From: Thermoanaerobaculia bacterium
GTDB taxonomy: Bacteria; Acidobacteriota; Thermoanaerobaculia; UBA5066
Length of the DNA stretch: 64,000 nt
Assembly (NCBI GenBank): GCA_963719225.1
Contig: CAVRAY010000001.1
Location: forward strand, 2,880,001 to 2,944,000
Direction: 5' to 3'
A program made the position numbers and the translations under genes. The notes beneath the pieces are model-generated. The model was not told where the DNA came from and made no database searches. It worked only from the letters and a program-made list of their open reading frames with translations. The stretch's first letter is position 1, and each line of letters opens with the position of its first letter. Shown piece after piece: positions 34,515-48,989 of this stretch.

Positions 34515-36380
34515 TCAGGCCGCGCGGGGGATCGAGTCGAGCGCGGCCTTGGTCTCCTCACGGCCCGTGCGCCAGTGCCTCGCCCAGCGCGGAATCGCGT
34601 CGGCGAGGACCAGGAGGACGGACGCCATCATCACGGCCGTCAGACCCGAGTTCAGCCAGCCCTTGAACGCGTCCCCCGGGCGGACGGACCGTGCGAGAGG
34701 AAGAAAGATGTCGCGGATCGACAGCGCCCCGCCCGCGAGCGTCGTCGTCCCGACGAAGAGGAGTGGCACGATCGTCACCAGGGCGTAACGCGAGCGGCCT
34801 TCGTTCACGATCACGGTCGTGGCGACGGTGAGCGCCACGACCGCGAGGAGCTGGTTCGCGACGCCGAACATGGGCCAGAGCGACTGGATCGAACCGGTGA
34901 AGATGAACCAGCTCCAGCCGCCCACGATGAGAGCCGTCGCGAAAATGCTGCCCGGCAGCCAGTCCGTTCTCGCCATGCGCGGGAAGGCGCGCCCGGCGAG
35001 CTCCTGGACGAGGAAGCGGCCGATGCGCGTTCCCGTGTCGATCGTCGTGAGGACGAAGAGCGCCTCGAACATGATGACGAAGTGGTAGAAGTAGCTCATG
35101 AGGCTCTTGGCGCCGGGCAGATCGCCGAAGATCTGGGCGATCCCGACGGCGAGCGAGACCCCGCCCCCCGTTCGCCCGGCGAGGCGCGGCTCGCCCACGA
35201 GCGCCGCGAGCTCCGACAGGCGGCCGCCGTCGAGATTCATCTTTGCGGCGAGCGCCTCGAACGCCTGCGGCGAGAGGTTGATCCGGAAGTAGTCCGCCGG
35301 AAAGAGCGACGACGCGGCGACGAGCGCCGTCACGCCCACGAGGCTCTCCATGAGCATCGCCCCGTAGCCGATGGCCCGCGCGTGGCTCTCCTTGTCGAGC
35401 ATCTTGGACGTTGTTCCCGACGACACGAGCGCGTGAAAGCCCGAGATGGCGCCGCACGCGATCGTGATGAAGACGAACGGGAAGAGGGCGCCCGGCACGA
35501 GCGGCCCGCCGCCGGACGCGAACCCGCTGACGGCCGGCGCCTTCATCTCGGGGCGCACGAGGAACACCGTGACGACGATTACGGCGATCGTTCCGACCTT
35601 CATGTAGCTCGAGAGGTAGTCGCGGGGACAGAGGAGCATCCACACGGGCAGGACCGACGCGAGAAACCCGTACGCGGCGATGGCGGCCGTGAGCGACGTC
35701 TCCGAAAGCGTGAAAAGGTGCGACGCACCCGCCCACGGATGGCCCGGCGCGAAGAGTCCGCCGAGGACGACGCACGCCATGAGCAGCGACACGCCGATGG
35801 CCGACGCTTCGGCCACGCGGCCCGGCCTGATCCGGTACATGTAGAGGCCCATCAACAGCGCGATCGGGATCGACGCGGCGATCGCGAACGTGCCCCAGGC
35901 GCTTTCGGCGAGCGCCTTGACGACGATAAACCCGAGAACCGCCATCGCGACAACGACGATGAAGAGAATCGCGATCATCGCGACGATGCCGCTCAGGGGG
36001 CTGATCTCGTCGCGTGCGATCTCCGCGAGCGAACGGCCGCCGCGCCGAACGGAAGCCCCGAGGATGACGAAGTCCTGCACCGCACCCGCGAGGCAGACGC
36101 CGAACACGAGCCACAGGAGGCCGGGGAGCCATCCGAACTGGGCCGCGAGGACCGGCCCGATGAGCGGCCCGGCGCCCGAGATCGCGGCGAAGTGATGGCC
36201 CCAGAGGACCCAGCGGTTCGTGGGATGAAAATTCTGGCCGTCGCGGCGCGTGTGCGCCGGCGTCGGTCGCCGGTCGTCCAGGCCGATCACGCGACGCGCG
36301 AGGAATCCGCTGTAGAAGCGGTAGAAGATCGCGTAGACGCCGAGCGCTCCGAGGAGCAGCCAGAACGCGTTGACCGTCAC
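34515..36380 (-). CDS. cstA: Carbon starvation protein A family transporter
   Basis: GHHFAAISGAGPLIGP, PRDYLS, TIACGAISGFH, WPMFGVANQ. Confidence 0.95.
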   Translation of the reverse strand: MTVNAFWLLLGALGVYAIFYRFYSGFLARRVIGLDDRRPTPAHTRRDGQNFHPTNRWVLWGHHFAAISGAGPLIGPVLAAQFGWLPGLLWLVFGVCLAGAVQDFVILGASVRRGGRSLAEIARDEISPLSGIVAMIAILFIVVVAMAVLGFIVVKALAESAWGTFAIAASIPIALLMGLYMYRIRPGRVAEASAIGVSLLMACVVLGGLFAPGHPWAGASHLFTLSETSLTAAIAAYGFLASVLPVWMLLCPRDYLSSYMKVGTIAVIVVTVFLVRPEMKAPAVSGFASGGGPLVPGALFPFVFITIACGAISGFHALVSSGTTSKMLDKESHARAIGYGAMLMESLVGVTALVAASSLFPADYFRINLSPQAFEALAAKMNLDGGRLSELAALVGEPRLAGRTGGGVSLAVGIAQIFGDLPGAKSLMSYFYHFVIMFEALFVLTTIDTGTRIGRFLVQELAGRAFPRMARTDWLPGSIFATALIVGGWSWFIFTGSIQSLWPMFGVANQLLAVVALTVATTVIVNEGRSRYALVTIVPLLFVGTTTLAGGALSIRDIFLPLARSVRPGDAFKGWLNSGLTAVMMASVLLVLADAIPRWARHWRTGREETKAALDSIPRAA

Positions 36381-37179: not shown

Positions 37180-37626
37180 ATGGACGGCAATTCGCTCGCC
37201 GGGGCCTGGAAGCTGCTCGTTTTCGAGTTCCGCTCCGAAGGACAGGTCGTATTTCCATTCGGAACGAACGTCATCGGACTGTGCCTCTATGACGCGACCG
37301 GCCACATGGCATTGCAGATCATGCGCGGAGACCGCCCCCGATTCGCCGCGAACGACCAGCAGCTGGGCACGCCGGCCGAGGTCGCGGCCGCCTTCTTCGG
37401 ATGTCTCGCCTACGCGGGCACGTACGTCGCCGACGAGGTCCACGGCGTCGTCGTGCATCACGTCTCACAATCCCTCTTCCCGAACTGGGTCGGCACGGAT
37501 CAGATCCGCTTCTACCGGATCTCCGGAGACCGTCTCATCGTGAGCGCGCCGACGCAGCAGGTCGGGGGACACCTCATGGACGTGATGCTCGTGTGGGAGC
37601 GGCTCGCTCCCGTCGCGGGGGCCTGA
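37180..37626 (+). CDS. Lipocalin-like domain protein
   Basis: LAGAWKL, G...YD..GHM..QIM, AYAGTY, SLFPNWVG..Q.R, LVWER. Confidence 0.85.
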   Translation: MDGNSLAGAWKLLVFEFRSEGQVVFPFGTNVIGLCLYDATGHMALQIMRGDRPRFAANDQQLGTPAEVAAAFFGCLAYAGTYVADEVHGVVVHHVSQSLFPNWVGTDQIRFYRISGDRLIVSAPTQQVGGHLMDVMLVWERLAPVAGA

Positions 37627-37631
37627 CGCAC

Positions 37632-39293
37632 GTGCAGAGATTCGTCCTTCCCCGCCACGTCTCGCGACGACTGCCGCTCTGTCGCCGGACGGGTCCGTGT
37701 CCGCCGGACGAGGACATCCGCTTCACCGTACTCCTCCATGCCAAGGACATGCGCATGCTCCGGGAAGCGGCAGCTGCCGTCTCGGACCCGAAGAGCTCCG
37801 TCTATGGGCGCCACCTTTCCGCCGACGAGGTACGCACGCTCGTCGCGCCCGGGTATCAGGATCTCGACGCGGTGCTGGCCTTCCTCAGAGACGCCGGCCT
37901 CACCGTGGACGGCGTCGCCGGGGCGCGTACCGCGGTCCAGGGCCACGGCCCGGCGGAGAGGATCTCGCGCGCGTTCGACGTTCCCATCGGCACCTACGCG
38001 CCGCCGCGCACCGTATCGCCTCGCGTGCGGCGCGCGATCGCGGCCGAGCGGGACCCCACGATTCCGGCGTCGCTCGCGTCCGTGATTCGCGGCGTCGCGG
38101 GACTCAACACCCTTCCCGCGGCCCGGCGCTTCCCGCCGATCTTCGCCCCGCCCCGCTCCAAGGTACCGCGGCGCGGACCCGCCGCGGCTCGCGGGCCCGG
38201 CGGAGGCTTCACGCCCGACGAGATTCGCGCGGCGTACGCCCTCCCCGATCCGGCCACGGCGGGAGGCCGCGGTGAGCGCGTGGCCATCCTCGAGTTCGGA
38301 GGCGGATTCTCGGGTGACGACTTCGCGACGTTCTGCACGCACTACGGCCTGCCTGTGGGCGACGTCACGGACGTCTCGGTCTCGGGGGCCAAGAACGACT
38401 ATCAGGGCAGGACGGGCGACGCCGACGTGGAGGTCGCGCTCGACATGGACTGGGTGCGAGGCACGGCGCCGCAGGCGGACCTGGACCTGTGGTGGACGCC
38501 CAACACGGATACGGGCTGGGTCGATTTCCTCAACGCGCTCCTCGATGCGCCGGACGCCCGCCGCCCCTCGATCGTCTCGATCTCATGGGGAATGCCCGAG
38601 GACGGCTTCGCGACGTCCCGGAGGTACGACCAGACCCGCCAGCTCTTCCTTTCGTGTGCGCTCCTCGGCATCACATTCGTCTGCGCCTCGGGAGACGCCG
38701 GCGCCGGCGACATCCTTCCGGAGGACGCCGCCTTCGACGGCCAGCGCCACGTGGACTTTCCGAGCGTCGTCCCGGAGGTGACCGCGGTCGGGGGTACGAA
38801 GCTCGTCCCGAAGGGCAGCTCCTTCGCGGAGAGCGCCTGGAACGACGGCCCGAGTCGCGGCGCGACGGGCGGGGGCTTCTCGAGGTTCGTGGCGGTCCCC
38901 GCGTGGCAGAGGGCGGCTCTGGGCGCGCGCCGCGGGGTGACGGGTCGGGGCATTCCCGATGTCGCGGCGGTCGCGTCGCCCGATCCCGGCCTCTCGATCT
39001 TCGTGAGAAAAAAGTGGACCGCCGCCGGAGGAACCAGCGTGGCGGCGCCGATCTGGTCCGGAATCCTCGCGCACGTGAACGCCGCGCGCGCGGAGGCAGG
39101 GAAACCCCGCATGGGAGCCGCGAACGCGGCCCTCTACGACCTGGCTCGCGGCGTCTCGCCTTTCCGGGACGTCACGCAGGGTGACAATTCGTACGGCGGC
39201 GTTTCGGGATATCCGGCGACGAAAGGGTGGGACCCGACCACGGGCCTCGGTTCCGTCGATACCGGAAAGCTCGTGAAGAAGCTCCTCGCCTGA
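37632..39293 (+). CDS. S53 sedolisin/kumamolisin-family peptidase with prodomain
   Basis: EVALD, SISWG, SGDAG, GRGIPDV, GGTSVAAP, GWDPTTGLGS. Confidence 0.93.
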   Translation: MQRFVLPRHVSRRLPLCRRTGPCPPDEDIRFTVLLHAKDMRMLREAAAAVSDPKSSVYGRHLSADEVRTLVAPGYQDLDAVLAFLRDAGLTVDGVAGARTAVQGHGPAERISRAFDVPIGTYAPPRTVSPRVRRAIAAERDPTIPASLASVIRGVAGLNTLPAARRFPPIFAPPRSKVPRRGPAAARGPGGGFTPDEIRAAYALPDPATAGGRGERVAILEFGGGFSGDDFATFCTHYGLPVGDVTDVSVSGAKNDYQGRTGDADVEVALDMDWVRGTAPQADLDLWWTPNTDTGWVDFLNALLDAPDARRPSIVSISWGMPEDGFATSRRYDQTRQLFLSCALLGITFVCASGDAGAGDILPEDAAFDGQRHVDFPSVVPEVTAVGGTKLVPKGSSFAESAWNDGPSRGATGGGFSRFVAVPAWQRAALGARRGVTGRGIPDVAAVASPDPGLSIFVRKKWTAAGGTSVAAPIWSGILAHVNAARAEAGKPRMGAANAALYDLARGVSPFRDVTQGDNSYGGVSGYPATKGWDPTTGLGSVDTGKLVKKLLA

Positions 39294-39320: not shown

Positions 39321-41803
39321 TCAGGGCGCGCTTCTCACGAAGGCGGCGTTGACGGGGGCCGGCATCGGGGAGTCGGCGCCGCGGACGCTCTTCCAGATCG
39401 CCTCGTTGAGGGGCACGTCGGGGGCGGCGTCTTCCCTCGAGAAGTCCCACGTGTCCGCAAGAGCCTGCATCGGCGCGCCGCGCGGATTCGTCTCGTAGAA
39501 CGGGATCGCCGTTTCGCGGTGGACGAAGGGCGCCGGGTCCGGCACGTCTGCGAACGCGGCCGTCATAGGCGTCGCGCCCGCGTCGTGCTGCGACATGGGC
39601 GGAAGCCCGAGGATGAGCTCCATCGTCCGGAGCATGGACGTCGTCGAATACATCGTCGAGTCCACGGCTCGGCGCCGCGTGTACGGCGACACGACGAGCG
39701 CGACCGTGCGATGCGCGTCGACGTGGTCGGGTCCGTTCTGGGCATCGTCCTCGACGACGAAGACCGCCGTCTCGCTCCAGAAGGGCGAGAGCGAGAGCGC
39801 CTCGACGAGGCGGCCCAGGGCGACGTCGTTCTCGGCCACCATCGCGCGCGGCGTCTTGCCGCCCTTCTTCGTCCCCACGGTGTGATCGTTGCCCAGCCGC
39901 ACGATCATGAGCCGCGGCATCTCCTTCTTCTTCACGTACTGGGCGAATTCCTTCAGCCAGATGTCGACGCGCGCGTTGTCGAGGATTTCCGTGTCGAATC
40001 CCGGGTAGTAGGGATTCGTGTTCGCCCTGAGCGCGCCCTCCTGACCCTGCGAGAGGCCCGCCTCGAGCGGCGTTTCGGATTCGGAGGCGATGCCCGTGAA
40101 CTCGCCGTAATTGCGCAGCGAGAGCCCGGCGCGCGCGGCCGCGTCCCAGAGGTAGCCGTTCGTCGGAAACGCCGCGGGATCGTTCCCTTCGAAGAGGTAG
40201 GAGAAGCCGTGGCTGCCGTAGCTCGGAGGCCAGACCTTCTCCACGAAATCCGTCGCGTACGCGCCCATGGACCAGTTGTGGCCGTCGGCGGAGACCTCGG
40301 CATCGCAGTAGAAGTTGTCGAGCGTGACGTACTCCTCGGCGAGCGCGTGCGCGTTCGGCGTCACGTCGCGCCCGAAGAGGACGAGCGACGGGTCGCCGTT
40401 GCCCTTCGGGAGGTCGCCGAGGACCTGGTCGTACGTGCGGTTCTCGCGGACGACGTAGACGACGTGCTTGATCGGCGACGTGCCGCCGGGCGCGGCCGGC
40501 ACGACGGCCGACGCGCGCACGGTGAGGGATCCCCGCGCGGCGGGCCGGCGGTTCGCGTACGCCCGCGTGGTGAGAGATGCGAGCTGGCGACCGTCGGGAA
40601 CCGGACGCGCGAGACGCTGCCGGGGATCGTCCGCGTGAGGCGCGTCGGGTCTCCGAGCTTCGGCTTCGTCGGATCCGGCCCGCCCTTCGAATTCTCCCAC
40701 GAGCCGCCGCCCTTCGCATTCGCGACCCAGAGGGTCCTCCCGTCGCGCGAGAGGGCGAGCGCGTCGGGATACCAGCCGGACGGGATGAATCCCTTCGCGC
40801 GTGCCTTCGCGGGACCGAGGGAAAGATCCACCACCGCCACGGCGTCGTCGTCGGCATTCGCGACGAAGAGCCTCTTCCCGTCGCGCGAAAGGGCCAGCGC
40901 GTTCGGCGTCGAGCCGTCGGGCATCGCGTCCGACGAGGGCGTCCCCGGCCCGTCCGGACCGAGCGCGACCGAGATCTGCCGCACGACTCCCCGCGACGCG
41001 ACGTCCACGGCTGCGACGAGGTTCCGGTTCGCCTGGGCGACGAAGAGCGTTCTTCCGTCGGGCGAAAAGACGAGATCTCCCGGATGGTCCGCCGTCTTCA
41101 CCGAGCCGGTCGCGATCGCCTTTTCCGGATCGACGAACGTCACGGCCGCTCCGCCCCATGCCGCGAGCGCGAGGATCTTTCCATCCGGGGAGAAGACCGG
41201 CCGGTAGGGATGGATGCCCGCGGAAACCCCCGCGACGACCTGCCTTGCGGCGAGATCGACCTTCACGACGTCGTTCGCGAGGATGCGCGCGGCCCAGAGA
41301 GTCTTGCCGTCCGGTGAGATGGCGAGCCCTCCCGGCGTCGCGTCGACTTTCGGCCCGTCCTCCTTGCGCTTCAGCGAGATCGGCTCCTCGGCGACGAAGC
41401 GGTCCCGTTCCAGGCGATAGACGAGGACGTTTCTCCCTTTGGCGCCGGCGACGTACGCCCGCGCGCCGTCCGGCGAGAGCGCCATGCCGAGCCACGAATG
41501 CGGCAGGGGCTGCTTGAAAAGGGACTTCCCCGAGGCGGCGTCCAGCAGGTGGAGCGACTGGTCATCCGCGCCGGTGCAAAGCGCGACGACCCGGCTTTCA
41601 TCGGGCGCGAGCGCGAGCGCGAACGGGTAAGGCGAAACCTCGGTCTGCGTGCCCGTCGGGGTCAGCAGGCGCCCGTTCGGGAGCTGGACCTCGCCGGTCG
41701 GCAGGCGCGACGGTACGACGCGGTCGGCTACGAGGAGCGAAGAAGAAAGAGAAAGAGAGAATGAGAATCTGCTTAGAAAGGAAAGAAAGAACGAGACGCG
41801 CAT
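39321..41803 (-). pseudogene. YVTN beta-propeller plus phosphoesterase (alkaline phosphatase superfamily) protein split by a single frameshift near 40603
   Basis: N-half (signal, LPNG, propeller repeats, GWYP) and C-half (IKHVVYVVRENRTYDQV, SADGHNW, NDHT, EDDAQNGPDHVDAHR) lie in different frames; one extra C at GTC CGG restores continuity. Confidence 0.8.
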
Positions 41804-42602
41804 ATGGGGAAGACTAGCGCGCTCGACAGCTCATTCGCCCTAAATCGATATCCGCGCGACGCCCAGGACCTTCCGGCTCTTTCTCTCCTGAACGAAAGCC
41901 ACGGCGTGTAGCTCATTTCTCTTCCAGTCCGCTTTGAGGCGAAGCGGGCGCTCCGTCTCGAAAAGTCCTCCCGGTCGAACCGTGCTCACGACCGCGAGTT
42001 CGCGAACGACGGCGCCGTGCACGAGGCGCCGCCCCGCGTTCTCGCCCCGCGGCACGTCGCTCGCGAGCCCGTCCTCGGTGATCGCGAGGAGGAGCTCGGC
42101 CGTATCGCCAGGCGTGACGGGCGGCAACGCGCTGACCCGGACCCGCAGGGCGGCCCCCTGCCCGTTCGCCGACGGCAGGATCTCGATCGACGCCTTCGGC
42201 AGACGGGCGGCCTCCTCGACCGCGTGCCGCGCCTTCTTCTCGTCGCTCCCGACGAGCTCCGTGCGCCCATCCACGACGACCTGCGGCGTGTAGACGCGGC
42301 TTTCGCCCCAGGCGCGGCCGTAGTCGCTCTGGCGCGCGCTGAACGACTCGGAGGAGTAAGGATCGGCCCACCCGAGGCGGTTCCAGTAATCGACGTGCAA
42401 GGACAGTGGCACGACCTCGGCACCGGCGACCGGCTGGGTCCGCTCGAGGCGCACGAGCGCGAGGTCGGCCGGAGGGCAGCTCGAGCAACCCTCGGACGTG
42501 AACAGCTCCACGAGGACCGGAATGCGGGCGGATCGAGGTCCCTCGGCGCTCGTCGAGCCGGCGGCGAGTACGAGCACCGCCGTCAAGATGATTCTCTTGG
42601 AA
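41770..42602 (-). repeat. Two copies of the dispersed motif in signal-peptide coding regions
   Basis: TGCTTAGAA 41770-41778 and CTCTTGGAA 42594-42602. Confidence 0.6.
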
Positions 42603-42625
42603 AGGACTTCGAAGACAGAAGACAT
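41840..42625 (-). CDS. DUF1223 secreted thioredoxin-like protein
   Basis: VELFTSEGCSSCPPAD, HVDYW..LGW.DP, YTPQ.VVDG, RGENAG. Confidence 0.92.
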   Translation of the reverse strand: MSSVFEVLSKRIILTAVLVLAAGSTSAEGPRSARIPVLVELFTSEGCSSCPPADLALVRLERTQPVAGAEVVPLSLHVDYWNRLGWADPYSSESFSARQSDYGRAWGESRVYTPQVVVDGRTELVGSDEKKARHAVEEAARLPKASIEILPSANGQGAALRVRVSALPPVTPGDTAELLLAITEDGLASDVPRGENAGRRLVHGAVVRELAVVSTVRPGGLFETERPLRLKADWKRNELHAVAFVQERKSRKVLGVARISI

Positions 42626-42749: not shown

Positions 42750-43280
42750 CTATCGCGTTCGAGACTCGGCGCCCGCGACCGCCCGCGCGATCTCCGAGTC
42801 TCCGGGGCGCTTGCGGTGATCGCTTTCCACGAAACGCCAGGCTTCTCGCCCTTCACGGTCGACGAGAACGAGGGAAGGCGGGAGCCGGGGAGCCGTTCCC
42901 CCGTTTCCGGCCGCCGGGCGGTTCAGGGTTCTCACGCGCGGCGAGGAGAGGAAGCGATGCGTGAGCCGAACCCGGCGCTGCTGTTCGACGGACGCGACGA
43001 GGGCGCGCGACTGTTCGGGAGAGTCCGGGGCGACGACGAGGACGGAAACGTCTTTCAACGCGGTCCCCTTCAGGCGCTCGAGCTGGAGCAACTGCTCCAG
43101 GCACGCCGGTCACCACGCGCCGCGCGTGAACGCGAGAAGGACGAGGCGCCCGCGGTACTCGTCGAGAGTGACCGTCTTTCCGTCCGCGTCGGGAAGAGAG
43201 ATCGCGGGCGCAGGCGGTCTCTCGGCAGCGGCCGAGAGCGCGAGGGCGATCGTGACCGCTCCCAGGACCAGTCTCGTCAC
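42750..43280 (-). CDS. AhpC/TSA (redoxin) family selenoprotein with a UxxC motif
   Basis: GTG 43280 overlaps the kinase stop; reading ...AP.ISLPDADGKTVTL.EYRG..VLLAFTRGAW-TGA-PAC continues in frame into ORF 42750-43091; downstream hairpin. Confidence 0.88.
43083..43100 (-). other. Bacterial SECIS-like hairpin
   Basis: CTGGAGC-AGTT-GCTCCAG starting 10 nt after the in-frame TGA (43110-43112); loop G at +18. Confidence 0.75.
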
Positions 43281-45649
43281 GAGAGCAGTATAGATTCCGG
43301 CCGTGAGCTCTCGATCAGCCGGATGAACCGTGGCTCGCTCTTCAGGCTCTCGAAGTCCGGATCGAGGCGGGCGCGCTCCACGACGTAGACGCGGCGCATC
43401 GCCGCCGCGGCCTCGAGGACGTCGAGCGCCCGTTCCGCGTCGCCGAGGAGGGCCCAGGCCGCGGCGACGTAGTACCGCGTGAACGGCTCGTCCGCTCCCA
43501 ACCGCAGGCGGTCCTCGAAGGCTCCCACGGCGAGCGTGAGCGCCCGGTGCGCCTCCTCGGGATGTTCGAGCGCGAGGTGCGCGCTTCCGATCCGCGTGTG
43601 GAGCTCGATGACCGCGCGGTCCTTCAGCGCATGATCGACGCGCCGCAGGAAAGAGAGCTCCCGGTCGTAGGATTCGAGGGCCTCCGCTGGCCGGCCCTGG
43701 AGCGCTCGGATCTGACCGAGCTTCATGTAGGCCCCCACGATGACGATTCCTTCGCGGCCCGAGAGTCCCCTCTCCTGAAGCTCGATGGCCTGCCGCGCCG
43801 CGCGCTCGGCGCGCGGGAAGTCCCTCAGCAGGGCCGAGACGTGCGCGAGCTGGAGCGCGTACCAGCCTCCTTGCGGATTCAGGGCGAGGGCCCGCTCGAA
43901 GGAATCCACCGCGTTCTGAAACCGCCCGGTGCCGATGAAATGGGCGCGCGCCAGCGCCGCATGCGCCGCGGCGTCGTCCGGGTCCAGCTCCAGAGACCGG
44001 CGAATCGCCTCCAGCCCTTTGTCCGTGCTTCCGATGTCGACGAGCGTTCCGCCGAGCTCCTTCCACGCGCGCGCGAGGCGCGGCTGGAGGGCGAGGCATT
44101 TTCCGAAGCTCGTCATGGCTTTCTCGAGCAGCTCCGGCATCGCGAGATCCGTCGCCTTCACTTCGTAGGCTTCGCCGAGCGAGAGCCACGCGCGGGCATA
44201 GAGCGGATCGAGCGCCACGGCGCGCTCGAAGAAGAGGATCGCGCGGTCGACGGATTCCCGGCTCTCGGCGCGGAGGTTGATGAGACCCTTGGAATACGCC
44301 TCGTACGCGTCGATGACGTGCGTCTCCTCGGGCTCTTTCCCGGCAGGGCTCGAGGCGAGATGCATCGCCGCGGCGAGCTCCGCGACGACGCGGTCCTGCA
44401 AGGCGAAGAGGTCGCTGCGGCTGCCGTCCACCTTCACGGTCGTCACGACCTCGCCGGACTCCACGTCCGTCACGCGCGCCGTGATGCGCATGACGTCCCC
44501 GACGCCCTGGAATCCCCCCATCACGACGCGACGCGCGCCCACCTCGCGGCCGAGCCGGATGGCGAGCTCGCCCGCGCCCGACGCCGACTCGCCGGTCAGC
44601 CGCTTCTCGACCTCGCACACCCGCTCACAGCCGATCACGGAGAGCCCGGGCACGTTCTTCAGGTCGGCGGTGACGGTCTCCATGATGCCGGTCGAGAGCC
44701 AGTTGTCTTCGGGGTTCTTCGTGATGTTCGAGAACGCGAGAACGGCGATCACGCTTTCGGCCGGGGTCGAGGAAACCGAAGGCGCTCCCGATCGCGGCGC
44801 GCCGCCCGCCAGGGCCGAGAGCTCGTGCGCAACGTCGCGCATCGCCACGCGTCGGTCGCGGTCCTTCGCGATCATCTTCAGGACGAGGGCCTCCAGGTCC
44901 CGCGAAACGGCCGGATTGAGCCGCGTCAGGGAGGGCGGCTCCGCGTGGAGCAGCGCGTCGATGACGGCGACCGTGTTCGTGCCTTCGAAGGGCCGGCGGC
45001 GGGCGAGAAGCTCCCAGAGGAGCACGCCCAGCGAGAAAACGTCCGTCCGCGCGTCGACGTCGCGGCCCAGGGCCTGCTCGGGCGACATGTACGCCACGGT
45101 GCCGAGGACGGAGCCCGGCGTCGAGCGGGTCGGATCCGCGCCGATCGCGCTCCAGGTCTCGCTTCCCTCGCCCGGCACGGGCCGGAACGCGGCGAGGCCG
45201 AAGTCCAGGACCTTCACGCGTCCCCTTCCGTCCACCATGACGTTCCCGGGCTTGATGTCGCGGTGGACGACGCCGCGCGCATGGGCCGCCGCGAGCGCGT
45301 CAGCGACCTGATGGACGATGTCCACGGTCTCGCGGACCTCCGGCGGGCGCTCCTTGAGAATCGCAGAGAGCGTGCGCCCCGCGACGTACTCCATCGCGAT
45401 GAAGCTCTGCCTCCGCCCTTCGCGTTCCACCGTGTCGACGTCGTAGACGACGGCGATGTTCGGGTGGTTGAGCTGGGAGGCGAAGCGCGCCTCGCGCAGG
45501 AGGCGCCCTTCGTGGTCCTCCGCGCCCCGCAGCAGCTTCAGGGCGACGGGCCGCCGCAGCTTGAGGTCCTCGGCGCGGAAGACCTCTCCCATCCCGCCTT
45601 CGCCGAGGCGCTCCGCGATGCGGTAATGCGCGAGGACTTCGCCGACCAC
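43277..45649 (-). CDS. Hanks-type Ser/Thr kinase with TolB-N-like domain and TPRs
   Basis: LGEGGMGEV, VALK, HRDIKPGN, DFGLA, YMSPEQ; IAVLAF.N...D.WL..G; TPR repeats. Confidence 0.95.
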   Translation of the reverse strand: MVGEVLAHYRIAERLGEGGMGEVFRAEDLKLRRPVALKLLRGAEDHEGRLLREARFASQLNHPNIAVVYDVDTVEREGRRQSFIAMEYVAGRTLSAILKERPPEVRETVDIVHQVADALAAAHARGVVHRDIKPGNVMVDGRGRVKVLDFGLAAFRPVPGEGSETWSAIGADPTRSTPGSVLGTVAYMSPEQALGRDVDARTDVFSLGVLLWELLARRRPFEGTNTVAVIDALLHAEPPSLTRLNPAVSRDLEALVLKMIAKDRDRRVAMRDVAHELSALAGGAPRSGAPSVSSTPAESVIAVLAFSNITKNPEDNWLSTGIMETVTADLKNVPGLSVIGCERVCEVEKRLTGESASGAGELAIRLGREVGARRVVMGGFQGVGDVMRITARVTDVESGEVVTTVKVDGSRSDLFALQDRVVAELAAAMHLASSPAGKEPEETHVIDAYEAYSKGLINLRAESRESVDRAILFFERAVALDPLYARAWLSLGEAYEVKATDLAMPELLEKAMTSFGKCLALQPRLARAWKELGGTLVDIGSTDKGLEAIRRSLELDPDDAAAHAALARAHFIGTGRFQNAVDSFERALALNPQGGWYALQLAHVSALLRDFPRAERAARQAIELQERGLSGREGIVIVGAYMKLGQIRALQGRPAEALESYDRELSFLRRVDHALKDRAVIELHTRIGSAHLALEHPEEAHRALTLAVGAFEDRLRLGADEPFTRYYVAAAWALLGDAERALDVLEAAAAMRRVYVVERARLDPDFESLKSEPRFIRLIESSRPESILLS

Positions 45650-45709: not shown

Positions 45710-46954
45710 ATGGCGAGAGGGGACCGCGCGGACTTGAAGGATCTCGCCATGCTCTTTCTCCGCCTCGGCGCCACGGCTTTCGGCGGCCCCGCGGCTCACA
45801 TCTCGATGATGGAGCACGAGGTCGTGACGCGGCGCGGCTGGATGACGCGCGAGGAGTTCCTCGACCTCCTCGGCGCGACGAATCTCGCGCCGGGGCCGAA
45901 CTCCACGAAGATGGCGCTCTTCATCGGCCACGCGCGCGGGGGCTGGCCGGGCTTTCTCCTCGCCGGCCTCGGCTTCGTCCTGCCCGCGACTCTCCTCGTC
46001 ACCGTCTTCGCGTGGGCCTACGTGCGCTTCGGCTCCCTTCCCGCGTTCCCGCATTTCTTCGAGGGCATCAAGCCCGTCGTCCTCGCGCTCATCGCGCACG
46101 CCCTCGTCAGCCTCGGACGCACGGCGGTGAAGAACAAATTCTTCCTGGCGCTCGGGCTCGCCGCGCTCGCTGCGAGTTTCTTCGTCCATGAGCTTCTGCT
46201 GTTGCTCGTTGCGGGTTGTCTCTCGACGGGGGTGATGGTGTTGGAAGATTTGCTTAGAAAGGGTAAGAGGAGCGGCAAAGCTCCGGCATCGTCGGAGCGC
46301 GTCGACGGCGTTGAAGGTGCAGGTGATGCCAAGCGCGGCGACGTGTCGGGAGGCGCGCCTGCCCACCCCCAACCCCCTTCTAAGAAATCTTCTCTTCTCT
46401 TCCTTCCCCTCTTCTCCCTCGGCGTCCCTCTCTCGTCTTTCTCCCTAACCAGCCTTCTCCTCTTCTTCCTGAAGACCGGTGCGGTGCTGTTCGGCAGCGG
46501 CTACGTGCTCCTCGCCTACCTGAAAGCGGATCTCGTCGAGCGCTGGCACTGGCTCACGAGCGCGCAGCTTCTGGATGCCGTCGCGGTAGGCCAGTTCACG
46601 CCGGGGCCGCTCTCGTCCACCGCGACGTTCATCGGCTACGTGCTCGGGGGCCTGCCGGGGGCGTCCGTCGCGACGCTCGGCATCTTCCTTCCCGCCTTCG
46701 TCCTCGTCGCGGTCATGGGGCCGTTCGTGCCCCGTTTGCGGCAGTCGAGACTCCTCGGCGCTTTCCTCGACGGCGTCAACGTCGCGGCGCTCGCGCTGAT
46801 GGGCTACGTCACTCTCCAGTTCGCGCGGCCCGCTCTGACGAACGGCCCGACGGTGGCCCTTTTCCTCGCCAGCGTGGCGCTTCTCTCGACCGTGAGGATC
46901 AACGCGGCCTGGCTCGTCCTCGCGGGCGGGATCCTCGGGGTCGTTTTCGGCTGA
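45710..46954 (+). CDS. chrA: Chromate ion transporter (CHR family, long chain)
   Basis: LG..AFGGP, PGPNST, FGSGYVL, GQFTPGP. Confidence 0.93.
   Translation: MARGDRADLKDLAMLFLRLGATAFGGPAAHISMMEHEVVTRRGWMTREEFLDLLGATNLAPGPNSTKMALFIGHARGGWPGFLLAGLGFVLPATLLVTVFAWAYVRFGSLPAFPHFFEGIKPVVLALIAHALVSLGRTAVKNKFFLALGLAALAASFFVHELLLLLVAGCLSTGVMVLEDLLRKGKRSGKAPASSERVDGVEGAGDAKRGDVSGGAPAHPQPPSKKSSLLFLPLFSLGVPLSSFSLTSLLLFFLKTGAVLFGSGYVLLAYLKADLVERWHWLTSAQLLDAVAVGQFTPGPLSSTATFIGYVLGGLPGASVATLGIFLPAFVLVAVMGPFVPRLRQSRLLGAFLDGVNVAALALMGYVTLQFARPALTNGPTVALFLASVALLSTVRINAAWLVLAGGILGVVFG
46244..46392. repeat. ~20-bp inverted repeats (dispersed motif) bracketing the ChrA linker
   Basis: GAAGATTTGCTTAGAAAGGG 46244-46263 versus CCCCCTTCTAAGAAATCTTC 46373-46392. 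Confidence 0.8.
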
Positions 46955-46967
46955 GCGGTTTCTCTTC

Positions 46968-48989
46968 CTACGGGCCGACCTCGAACGGCGCGCGCCGCAG
47001 ATCGAGCGCGGGATTGCGGTCGAAGAAATGGGCGGGCTTCAGCTCGAACGACAGTGATTCACGCGCCAGGACCGGAGAGTCCTCGGTCACCGGCACGTGG
47101 TGAAATCCAACGGTCAGCCAGAGCACGATGTCCGTGTCGACGAGCCCCTGGTTGTTCGCGATGTACTGAGGCAGCCCGGGCTCGCCGGGGTTCTGGTTCG
47201 GCGTGTCGCCGGCGGCGTAGCGCTCGTCCGGATCGAACGCGGTCACCCAGAGGTTGTGCTCGATGAACCGCGCGCGCCGGAAATCGTCCTTCTTCAGCAG
47301 CGGCTCGACGTTGGCCTGCGATTCGACAACGAAGCCCGTCTCGTAGCCGCGGGCGTTGTGCCGGTGCGGATTGACGACACGCCACAACGAGTTCTTCTCG
47401 TCGAGCTGGCCATCGGCCTCCCGTCGCAGCACCGTTTCGTCGAGGACCCAGACGCTCTTGCGCGGCCCCGGCGCCGGGCGCTCCTTGAGCTGGCCGAGCA
47501 CGAAGCTGTTGTTGCGGCCGTCGACGTCGACGTCCAGGCGGAAGTTGAAGTGGTGGCTGTGATTGATCGCGACGAGGTTCGGCGAGACGAGGGCCCCGAA
47601 CTCCGTCTCCGGCGCGCCGTCGCCGAGCGTCTCGGCCACGACGGCCCTCGGCGCGTCGATGCCCGTCAACCCGACTTCGACGCGGATCGAGCCGCGCTGC
47701 GTGAAGATCCAGTCGACCATGTAGTCGTAGTTGCCGAGCTGGGAGATGGACCGGACCACCAGCTCGACCTCGGCCCGCCCCTCGTACGCGCCGCCCGAGA
47801 ACAGCTCGAAGTGCCGCCACACCGGGCTCCCCGTCAGGCGCTCGAAGACGCCGACGACGTTCGGCAGAGGCAGCGGAATGACCGGCAGGACGGGATCGGG
47901 GATCGCCGCCGCGACGAGCGCGTCGCGCAGCACCGCGTTCGACGGCAGGTCCAGCCCGAGCGCGAGCGGGGACGAGAGCAGCCCGAAACCGAACTCGCCG
48001 GCGTCCATGTACGTGCGATAGAACCAGTTTGTTCCGGGGTCCTGGTACGGGACGAAGATCTCGGCAAGCGAGCCCTGGTAGAGCACGGGGCGGCCGTCGT
48101 AGTTCGCGAGGGAGATCACCGTCCCGGAACGGCGCTCGAAGCGAACGTGGAAACGCCACTTCTGCCACTCGATGAAATTGCCGTCGAACGCAAAGTTGAC
48201 GCCTTGCGGCTGCGCCATCGTGATCGGCTTGAGCGCGGGGCGCAGCCCATAACGCGAGGCGACGGTGGCCTCGTCGAAGTCCTGCGTGTTCGCCGGCAGC
48301 GGAATGACGCCGGTGTCGATCACCTTGATCACCTGCCGGTCGTCGAGGTCCATGATCGCCTGCATGCCCTCGATGGGCCTGGCGTACAGGTTGATGCCGG
48401 CGCCTTCGGTGTAATACATCTGCGCCTTGACGATGCGGCGGGCCTCTTCGGGCAGTCCGAACGAGCCGGGCGTCAGTGGCGTCACGAGGACGTGCGCGAG
48501 CTGGCTCGGCGTCGTGATGCCGCGCCGCGCGAGCGCGGCCAGAAAAGCCGGATTCTGGAATGCAAACGAGAAGTCGCTCACCTCGGTGATCGTCAGACCG
48601 AGCTGGCCGTCGCTCCCGGGTATGAGCTTCGGCGCCGTGAACGTTCCGTGGGTCAGGTCGACGAACGTCTTGTAGCTCTTTTTCTCCTGTCGAAAGAAGA
48701 CCGTTGCCGCGCGCGGGATCGGGTCGCCGGCGTGGAACGCGAGAACGGCGTCCTTCGCCGGCTCGCGCAAGTCGATGCTTTGGAAGATCGCGCCGGGCTT
48801 CGCGACGTGCGCCTGCAGCAGGATGTTCGCCGCGGCGAGGATTTCGCCGTCCTCCAGAGGATCGAGCGGATGCTGGACCGCCGCACGAACCGGTGCGCCT
48901 CCGATGAGAAACGCCCCGACGACGATGACTTTCGCGCCTGTTCTGACTCTTGTGAACATCATCGGCCTCCTGACCACTCTCATACTCAC
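46968..48989 (-). CDS. Copper/TPQ primary amine oxidase (start may be a few codons downstream)
   Basis: HPLDPL, EIFVPY.DP, YMDAGEFG, GNYDY (TPQ site), HSHHFNFRLD and FHH Cu ligands; signal-like N-terminus. Confidence 0.93.
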   Translation of the reverse strand: MSMRVVRRPMMFTRVRTGAKVIVVGAFLIGGAPVRAAVQHPLDPLEDGEILAAANILLQAHVAKPGAIFQSIDLREPAKDAVLAFHAGDPIPRAATVFFRQEKKSYKTFVDLTHGTFTAPKLIPGSDGQLGLTITEVSDFSFAFQNPAFLAALARRGITTPSQLAHVLVTPLTPGSFGLPEEARRIVKAQMYYTEGAGINLYARPIEGMQAIMDLDDRQVIKVIDTGVIPLPANTQDFDEATVASRYGLRPALKPITMAQPQGVNFAFDGNFIEWQKWRFHVRFERRSGTVISLANYDGRPVLYQGSLAEIFVPYQDPGTNWFYRTYMDAGEFGFGLLSSPLALGLDLPSNAVLRDALVAAAIPDPVLPVIPLPLPNVVGVFERLTGSPVWRHFELFSGGAYEGRAEVELVVRSISQLGNYDYMVDWIFTQRGSIRVEVGLTGIDAPRAVVAETLGDGAPETEFGALVSPNLVAINHSHHFNFRLDVDVDGRNNSFVLGQLKERPAPGPRKSVWVLDETVLRREADGQLDEKNSLWRVVNPHRHNARGYETGFVVESQANVEPLLKKDDFRRARFIEHNLWVTAFDPDERYAAGDTPNQNPGEPGLPQYIANNQGLVDTDIVLWLTVGFHHVPVTEDSPVLARESLSFELKPAHFFDRNPALDLRRAPFEVGP

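Follow-up and report, generated by a model that had tools for sequence, protein, structure and literature searches.

Two questions are raised by a minus-strand frame in the genome of a Thermoanaerobaculia bacterium (Acidobacteriota; assembly GCA_963719225.1): whether its in-frame TGA encodes selenocysteine (Sec), and whether its product works with the Ser/Thr kinase encoded directly upstream. The window that we analysed is a stretch of 64,000 nt of contig CAVRAY010000001.1, and coordinates without a contig prefix count from its first nucleotide. An original prediction, made from the letters of the window, described an exported selenoprotein translationally coupled to the kinase, the two forming a kinase-linked extracytoplasmic redox module. 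Features of the window are collected in Table 1.

The frame spans 176 codons, from a GTG at 43280 to a TAG terminator at 42752-42750, and holds a single internal TGA (codon 57, 43112-43110) in the context FTRGAW-U-PAC. With U read as C, the translation scores 62.6 bits against PF08534 Redoxin (cut-off 26.6) and 53.1 bits against PF00578 AhpC-TSA (cut-off 26). Sequence and alignment agree with the original prediction that the TGA occupies the first Cys of the W-x-P-A-C motif of these families and that the frame continues to 42750; the TGA pairs with Cys in homologues, and homology continues past it. The gene had indeed been overlooked, as standard open reading frame calling returns only a 113-aa tail that begins at a TTG after the TGA. 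Among 44 protein-database matches, 26 are likewise short pieces (96–118 aa) with no Pfam domain; the four of these that were aligned each start past the U position, and one N-terminal database fragment stops at RGAW. Ten of the 44 are full-length Cys forms, all of them aligned, the Cys state of P0002-P0010 being read from protein sequence rather than from codons. One full-length homologue, P0005, reads CTAG and has lost the resolving Cys. A related-locus search with the single selenoprotein returned three genome loci and one metagenome locus.

Table 1. Coordinates of features in the 64,000-nt window
Feature	Position	Strand	Basis or remark
CstA	34515-36380	-	Pfam
Kumamolisin-like S8/S53 protease	37401-39293	+	Pfam
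DUF1223 gene, CSSC motif, signal-like N-terminus; possible partner	41840..42625	-	124 nt downstream of the selenoprotein gene
Prx-like/Redoxin thioredoxin-fold selenoprotein gene, 176 aa, U57-P-A-C60, GTG start	42750..43280	-	Frame, Pfam, model
Bacterial SECIS (bSECIS) upper stem-loop, 7 bp, loop AGUU (G at 43092), 16 nt past UGA; lower stem extends to 43073-43107	43083..43100	-	Folding and homologues
Cys60, second residue of the UxxC motif, invariant in 30/30 aligned homologues	43101..43103	-	
In-frame TGA, codon 57, selenocysteine (very likely); pairs with Cys of homologues	43110..43112	-	Alignment
Likely Sec-pathway signal peptide, residues 1-19: basic start, hydrophobic core, SAAA end	43224..43280	-	By eye and hydropathy
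Ser/Thr kinase-TPR gene, neighbour; 4-nt overlap not conserved	43277..45649	-	
-10 box TATACT, 6 nt before GTG, within the last codons of the kinase	43287..43292	-	Likely own promoter, leaderless mRNA
-35-like hexamer TCGAGA, 16 nt ahead of the -10 box	43309..43314	-	1 site in 1.8 kb
Chromate transporter	45710-46954	+	Pfam
Copper amine oxidase	46968-48989	-	Pfam

The TGA is shared by relatives. Nine of 29 genomes of the genus match the selenoprotein at E<=1e-20, and six of the 29 have close orthologues (>=73% identity): the host genome G000, G011, G005, G023 and G003, all with TGA, and G004, with TGC. The three remaining genus matches are Cys forms of 40–44% identity. A class-wide draw of 401 genomes gave 48 with a match, and in 42 of the 48 a TGA lies within the match; 30 of these 48 loci were examined, and every TGA locus among them carries the TGA at the same W-x-x-x-C position. 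The annotation is thereby corrected for the class, where this selenoprotein has been split into ‘hypothetical’ fragments by gene callers. A tree of 43 rows, which leaves out a broken copy in G003 and P0011 (identical to the G004 protein), calls for about four changes between Sec and Cys states, at least two of them forced by well-supported branches. When the tree is rooted at its midpoint, Cys forms seem to nest within Sec forms, the direction of change being uncertain because of long branches. Locus L030 (genome G025) was dropped from the SECIS, start-site and tree counts, and L057 has no motif match. The broken G003 copy (L062:7877-8700, G003:C4) has an internal deletion after residue 77; this copy and the patchy presence of close orthologues in the genus indicate that the gene is dispensable.

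Given this distribution, it is scarcely credible that the TGA stems from nonsense mutation or faulty assembly, in a gene that would then be a pseudogene or encode an ordinary Cys protein. The assembly does contain a 1-nt frameshift 2.5 kb away and 6.2% contamination, and one relative's contig has TGC at the codon. Yet dozens of genomes of the class have the TGA with intact frames downstream, and a hairpin and rare codons, described below, go along with it. Of 13 contigs from four other public runs that span codon 57, one is listed as different there, and this one is the relative with TGC; the contigs support the TGA. A contig from another public run matches 43060-43182 with no differences, although the best holder may share its source sample with the assembly.

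The host genome (4.75 Mb, 97% complete, 6.2% contamination) encodes the machinery for Sec insertion, as the original prediction requires: selA (E 1e-132), selB (5e-88) and selD (6e-100) all score above curated cut-offs, and a tRNA-Sec gene (selC) with anticodon UCA was likewise found above cut-off. selA matches were present in all 26 other TGA-bearing genomes searched and also in seven of eight Cys-form genomes, so the presence of selA does not separate the two forms. The selD gene itself has one internal TGA (C1:3642345, -). Further candidate selenoproteins in the host genome are a BCP-type peroxiredoxin with PKADTTG-U (TxxU; C1:116472, +), a protein with a WAPW-U-HSC motif (C1:251373, +), which we take to be thioredoxin-like, and one with a VPL-U-PMC motif (C2:437698, -), presumably PrdB-like. 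Two in-house selenoproteome screens proved too strict, the former missing this gene and selD and the latter this gene, and we give no selenoproteome count. On the sequence evidence, codon 57 is very likely read as selenocysteine.

The predicted 7-bp hairpin behind the TGA, with its loop G at +18, was recovered. Its energy is -11.3 kcal/mol, or -19.3 kcal/mol with the lower stem. The bSECIS model in PMC13188914 asks for a loop of 3–9 nt, a stem of 4–16 bp, a G in loop position 1 or 2, a distance from the UGA of 16–37 nt and a minimum free energy of -7.5 or less; the hairpin, with a 4-nt loop, 7 bp, G second in the loop, a UGA-to-loop distance of 16 nt and -11.3 kcal/mol, fits. Against shuffled sequences it is modest (z of -1.95 for 80 nt, -1.64 for 36 nt and -0.26 for 60 nt), and it is convincing because of the comparison with homologues. 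We looked at a fixed place: a loop beginning 17 nt after the codon and closed by a stem with six or more base pairs. Such a stem is found in 24 of 27 TGA genes, a count that overstates independence because the genomes are kin, against 1.6 expected with synonymous codons drawn by host usage. No such stem is present in the eight TGC genes (0.14 expected), and among 828 ordinary TGA stops 20 have one. A looser rule, a 7-bp hairpin with a G in the loop at any place, is also satisfied by 89 of the 828 ordinary stops and two of the eight Cys genes.

Codon choice follows the hairpin. The Leu in the loop is encoded by TTG or TTA in 20 of 20 such TGA genes, and in the host genome a Leu that follows CAG is encoded by TTG in 1.2% of cases; the Cys genes with Gln-Leu use CTC (5/5, G004 among them). 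G004 has the same CLEQLLQLE peptide behind its TGC, encoded with CTC, and the stem is lost. These close orthologues form a natural comparison, in which the same nine residues stand behind TGA or TGC: the Sec form keeps a rare-codon hairpin, and the Cys form has lost it though its host retains selA. With this pair one can test what a SECIS requires and what an exported oxidoreductase gains from Sec. The hairpins fall into two loop registers, of 4 and 5 nt, with two-sided changes in the stem, and because of the two registers a single consensus structure for all 27 fits only partly: 82% of cells are paired with the 5-nt loop and 64% with the 4-nt loop. In the selD gene of the host a stem lies at the same positions after the TGA, its loop starting with AGU.

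The protein is likely exported, judging by its N-terminus, which is signal-like as predicted (hydropathy averages 1.89 in residues 1-19). A hydrophobic stretch (12-residue mean 1.8–3.2) lies 47–77 residues ahead of the Sec or Cys in all 32 homologues scanned, and export is therefore likely a trait of the family. An AlphaFold model of the mature part (pLDDT 87, pTM 0.84) has a thioredoxin fold with a Prx/TlpA insertion; a 14-residue loop (98-112), unlike that of distant homologues, is unresolved in it. Structure matches to BCP/PrxQ peroxiredoxins and to ResA/DsbE/TlpA proteins are about equal. The protein might be a genuine selenoprotein that acts mainly as an exported peroxidase or sulfenic-acid scavenger, its Sec reacting directly with peroxides. 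BCP/PrxQ peroxiredoxins are the top structure and profile matches, and each of the 30 members has a weak match to the BCP model NF006960; ResA/TlpA structures, however, match about as well, and the genome has a separate TxxU peroxiredoxin (C1:116472). A thioredoxin-type Pro at the position of the peroxiredoxin Arg, where the other peroxiredoxin residues are missing too, is a signature of thiol-disulfide oxidoreductases and not of peroxidases. When aligned to 2ywn, the protein has R53, U57 and P135 where peroxiredoxins have Pro, Thr and Arg: the PxxxTxx(U/C) motif is absent (FTRGAWUPAC versus FYPAAFTQVC of 2ywn), and the catalytic Arg before the late beta strand is replaced by Pro135, invariant in 30 of 30 homologues. 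We consider the peroxidase role quite unlikely, and the protein likely to be a thiol-disulfide oxidoreductase, one of the Prx-like UxxC selenoproteins, a known family. The host genome also gives two DsbD membrane-domain matches, whose products could supply electrons to the redoxin.

This unannotated UxxC selenoprotein belongs, to judge from Pfam and motif searches, to a family that has already been described. Table 1 of PMC13188914 gives, as a high-confidence prediction, a ‘Prx-like thiol:disulfide oxidoreductase’ (PF00578, UxxC/UxxU); a ‘Redoxin family protein’ (PF08534, UxxC) stands there as well. In the Global Ocean Sampling (GOS) survey, passages of PMC2398784 report 225 ‘Prx-like 1’ selenoproteins, and its supplements contain 14 occurrences of RGAWUP, 30 of RGHWUP and 32 of RGFWUP, the earliest of them placed under ‘Prx-like 1’. 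PMC1794560 records the family in several Deltaproteobacteria. With these proteins ours shares PF00578 and PF08534 scores above cut-off, UxxC, the F-x-R-G-x-W-U-P-x-C motif, a SECIS within the frame and Cys homologues; it differs in its soil-type lineage, the signal-like N-terminus (32/32 homologues), the leaderless-promoter signature and a DUF1223 neighbour or fusion. Export of selenoproteins is not new either, since the preprint 10.1101/2022.07.06.499078 describes selenoproteins exposed outside the cell. Searches of the open literature returned no paper combining Thermoanaerobaculia and selenocysteine.

ResA/TlpA/DsbE proteins resemble the redoxin in fold (TM 0.66–0.71), in the xxxC active-site pair and in the thioredoxin-type Pro before the fourth core strand; they are exported, as the redoxin likely is. 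Their first Cys is, however, replaced by Sec here, the context of cytochrome c maturation is missing, and scores against the ResA/TlpA NCBIfam models are far under the cut-offs (25 versus 170; 30 versus 230). Three residues past the second Cys there is a Gln, where ResA has E80 (numbering from PDB titles). BCP/PrxQ and the Sec peroxiredoxins (TxxU) share the fold, with 17–24% identity to archaeal BCP structures, but differ in PxxxTxx(C/U), which is absent here, with Sec at the Thr position and Pro in place of the catalytic Arg. The best NCBIfam match is to the SelL-related redox protein NF040769, over the N-terminal half (E 2e-9), at 37 bits where the cut-off is 120.

The gene is likely transcribed from a leaderless promoter of its own, to judge from its upstream motifs. 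TCGAGA-16 nt-TATACT is the single such site in 1.8 kb, where 0.1 is expected, and TATACT or TATAAT stands 6–8 nt ahead of the start in five of the six close orthologues, G005 having no TA..T box. According to PMC3160421, TANNNT about 12 bp ahead of the start marks leaderless genes, and such genes are present in 3/3 Acidobacteria; here the first T of the -10 box is 12 nt upstream of the start. Genome-wide in the host there are 45 TATACT sites, of which 10 are followed by ATG or GTG at a distance of exactly 6 nt, and for the TANA(A/C)T set the number is 105 of 788 at 6 nt versus 4–22 at distances 0–5 and 11–24. Starts thus peak exactly 6 nt past TANNNT boxes across the genome, GTG as much as ATG. 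A literature search on leaderless bacterial selenoprotein genes with SECIS found nothing on the topic.

The link to the kinase, the striking part of the first reading, drops out. On that reading, translation of the selenoprotein is coupled to that of the kinase, and the two make up a kinase-linked redox module. The GTG does overlap the kinase stop (GTGA, 43280-43277), the kinase gene lies immediately upstream in three of the six close orthologues, with G003 having it one gene farther upstream, and the region has no terminator-like site that we found, so read-through co-transcription in the host is possible. But the overlap is seen in the host alone: it gives way to a 33-nt gap in G011 and a 38-nt gap in G005, and in two of the six, G023 and G004 (96–97% complete), the kinase is absent at the locus and was not found genome-wide, a divergent chromate-transporter gene standing directly upstream of the redoxin. 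In G003 a second, unrelated kinase with a beta-propeller-like tail is inserted upstream of the redoxin.

Co-occurrence is not conserved either. Although a kinase-domain gene (~35% identity, unrelated) lies within 1.5 kb in four of 25 distant loci, three of the four are divergently oriented, these three in one genus, and genomes of the genus studied here hold 28–80 kinase candidates each. Among 19 genomes of the genus that hold the kinase, 14 gave no match to the redoxin at E<=1e-20, and five of five redoxin-less genomes inspected keep the kinase at the locus, beside chrA. Past its last conserved motif the kinase tail differs among the nine genomes examined; in the host this variable tail (last residues ESILLS) runs across the redoxin promoter, and the match of a relative's contig extends through 43298, beyond which the two differ. 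As it contains no membrane or hydrophobic segment, the kinase is likely cytoplasmic. Coupling to the kinase is very improbable; because relatives do not keep the overlap, it is likely a local accident and the kinase an unrelated neighbour. Of the proposed module, the Sec residue, the SECIS and the signal-like N-terminus are supported and the kinase is not; none of this alters a general view.

DUF1223 is a better candidate partner, on thin, sequence-level evidence. As the original prediction noted, a putatively secreted DUF1223 gene with a CxxC motif (CSSC) follows on the same strand. It follows five of the six close orthologues, G005 being without it, and in G023 (L060:8150-9364 (+), G023:C4) the Sec-redoxin and DUF1223 are joined in an in-frame fusion of 404 residues that lacks the DUF1223 signal region and keeps UPAC...CSSC intact. 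A passage of PMC3091736 places DUF1223 in the thioredoxin fold. The two proteins might work together as an exported thiol relay of two steps, with the CSSC of DUF1223 reduced by the selenoenzyme; this would give the DUF1223 thioredoxin-fold family its first redox partner. We regard the relay as rather unlikely: the one fusion sits in a deletion-prone locus (as the G003 deletions show), and nine of 14 genus genomes with DUF1223 have no redoxin. No DUF1223 was found within ~1.5 kb of distant homologues, and Pfam annotation of 72 neighbouring frames at 29 loci (flanks of ~1.5 kb) revealed no recurring redox partner among them. A search among longer proteins for further redoxin fusions, with DUF1223 or otherwise, gave two TlpA-like matches only, and with the fused G023 fragment as query 0 of 473 candidates were fused; both are weak searches, in that neither returned the G023 product itself. 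The DUF1223 copy in G003 is cut after about residue 138.

Taken as a whole, an exported UxxC oxidoreductase with its own leaderless promoter, hairpin-driven UGA recoding and an unrelated kinase is a probable account of the locus. A sigma-70-type promoter would start the mRNA at or near the GTG, as the motif and the genome-wide spacing suggest. SelB carrying tRNA(Sec) would bind the AGUU-loop hairpin, and Sec would be inserted at codon 57; from the machinery, the hairpin and the Sec/Cys pairing we infer this incorporation. The N-terminal signal would then direct export. Outside the cytoplasm, the U57 selenolate is expected to attack an oxidised sulfur, such as a disulfide, of a client in the periplasm, with C60 then resolving the intermediate to a Se-S bond, a step that we infer from the fold and established thioredoxin chemistry; DUF1223 is the first candidate for the client. 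A DsbD/CcdA-type membrane protein, encoded in the host genome, would likely re-reduce the redoxin.

Some minor observations concern the rest of the window and of the genome. Two tmRNA genes were found in the host (C2:222382-222743 and C2:609793-610153; tags ANNSDLALAA and ANNSELALAA), each near a tRNA-Pro(TGG) gene; they may reflect the 6% contamination or a duplication. The copper amine oxidase gene was not found in the syntenic loci of relatives and may therefore be a recent insertion. A beta-propeller/phosphoesterase gene (39321-41803, -) is split into two frames near 40585, as 1 nt is missing in comparison with G011, in which a single open frame (872 codons) crosses the region; the split is either an assembly indel or a sign of a pseudogene. 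G017 shows a two-frame pattern for this gene as well, there owing to split queries.
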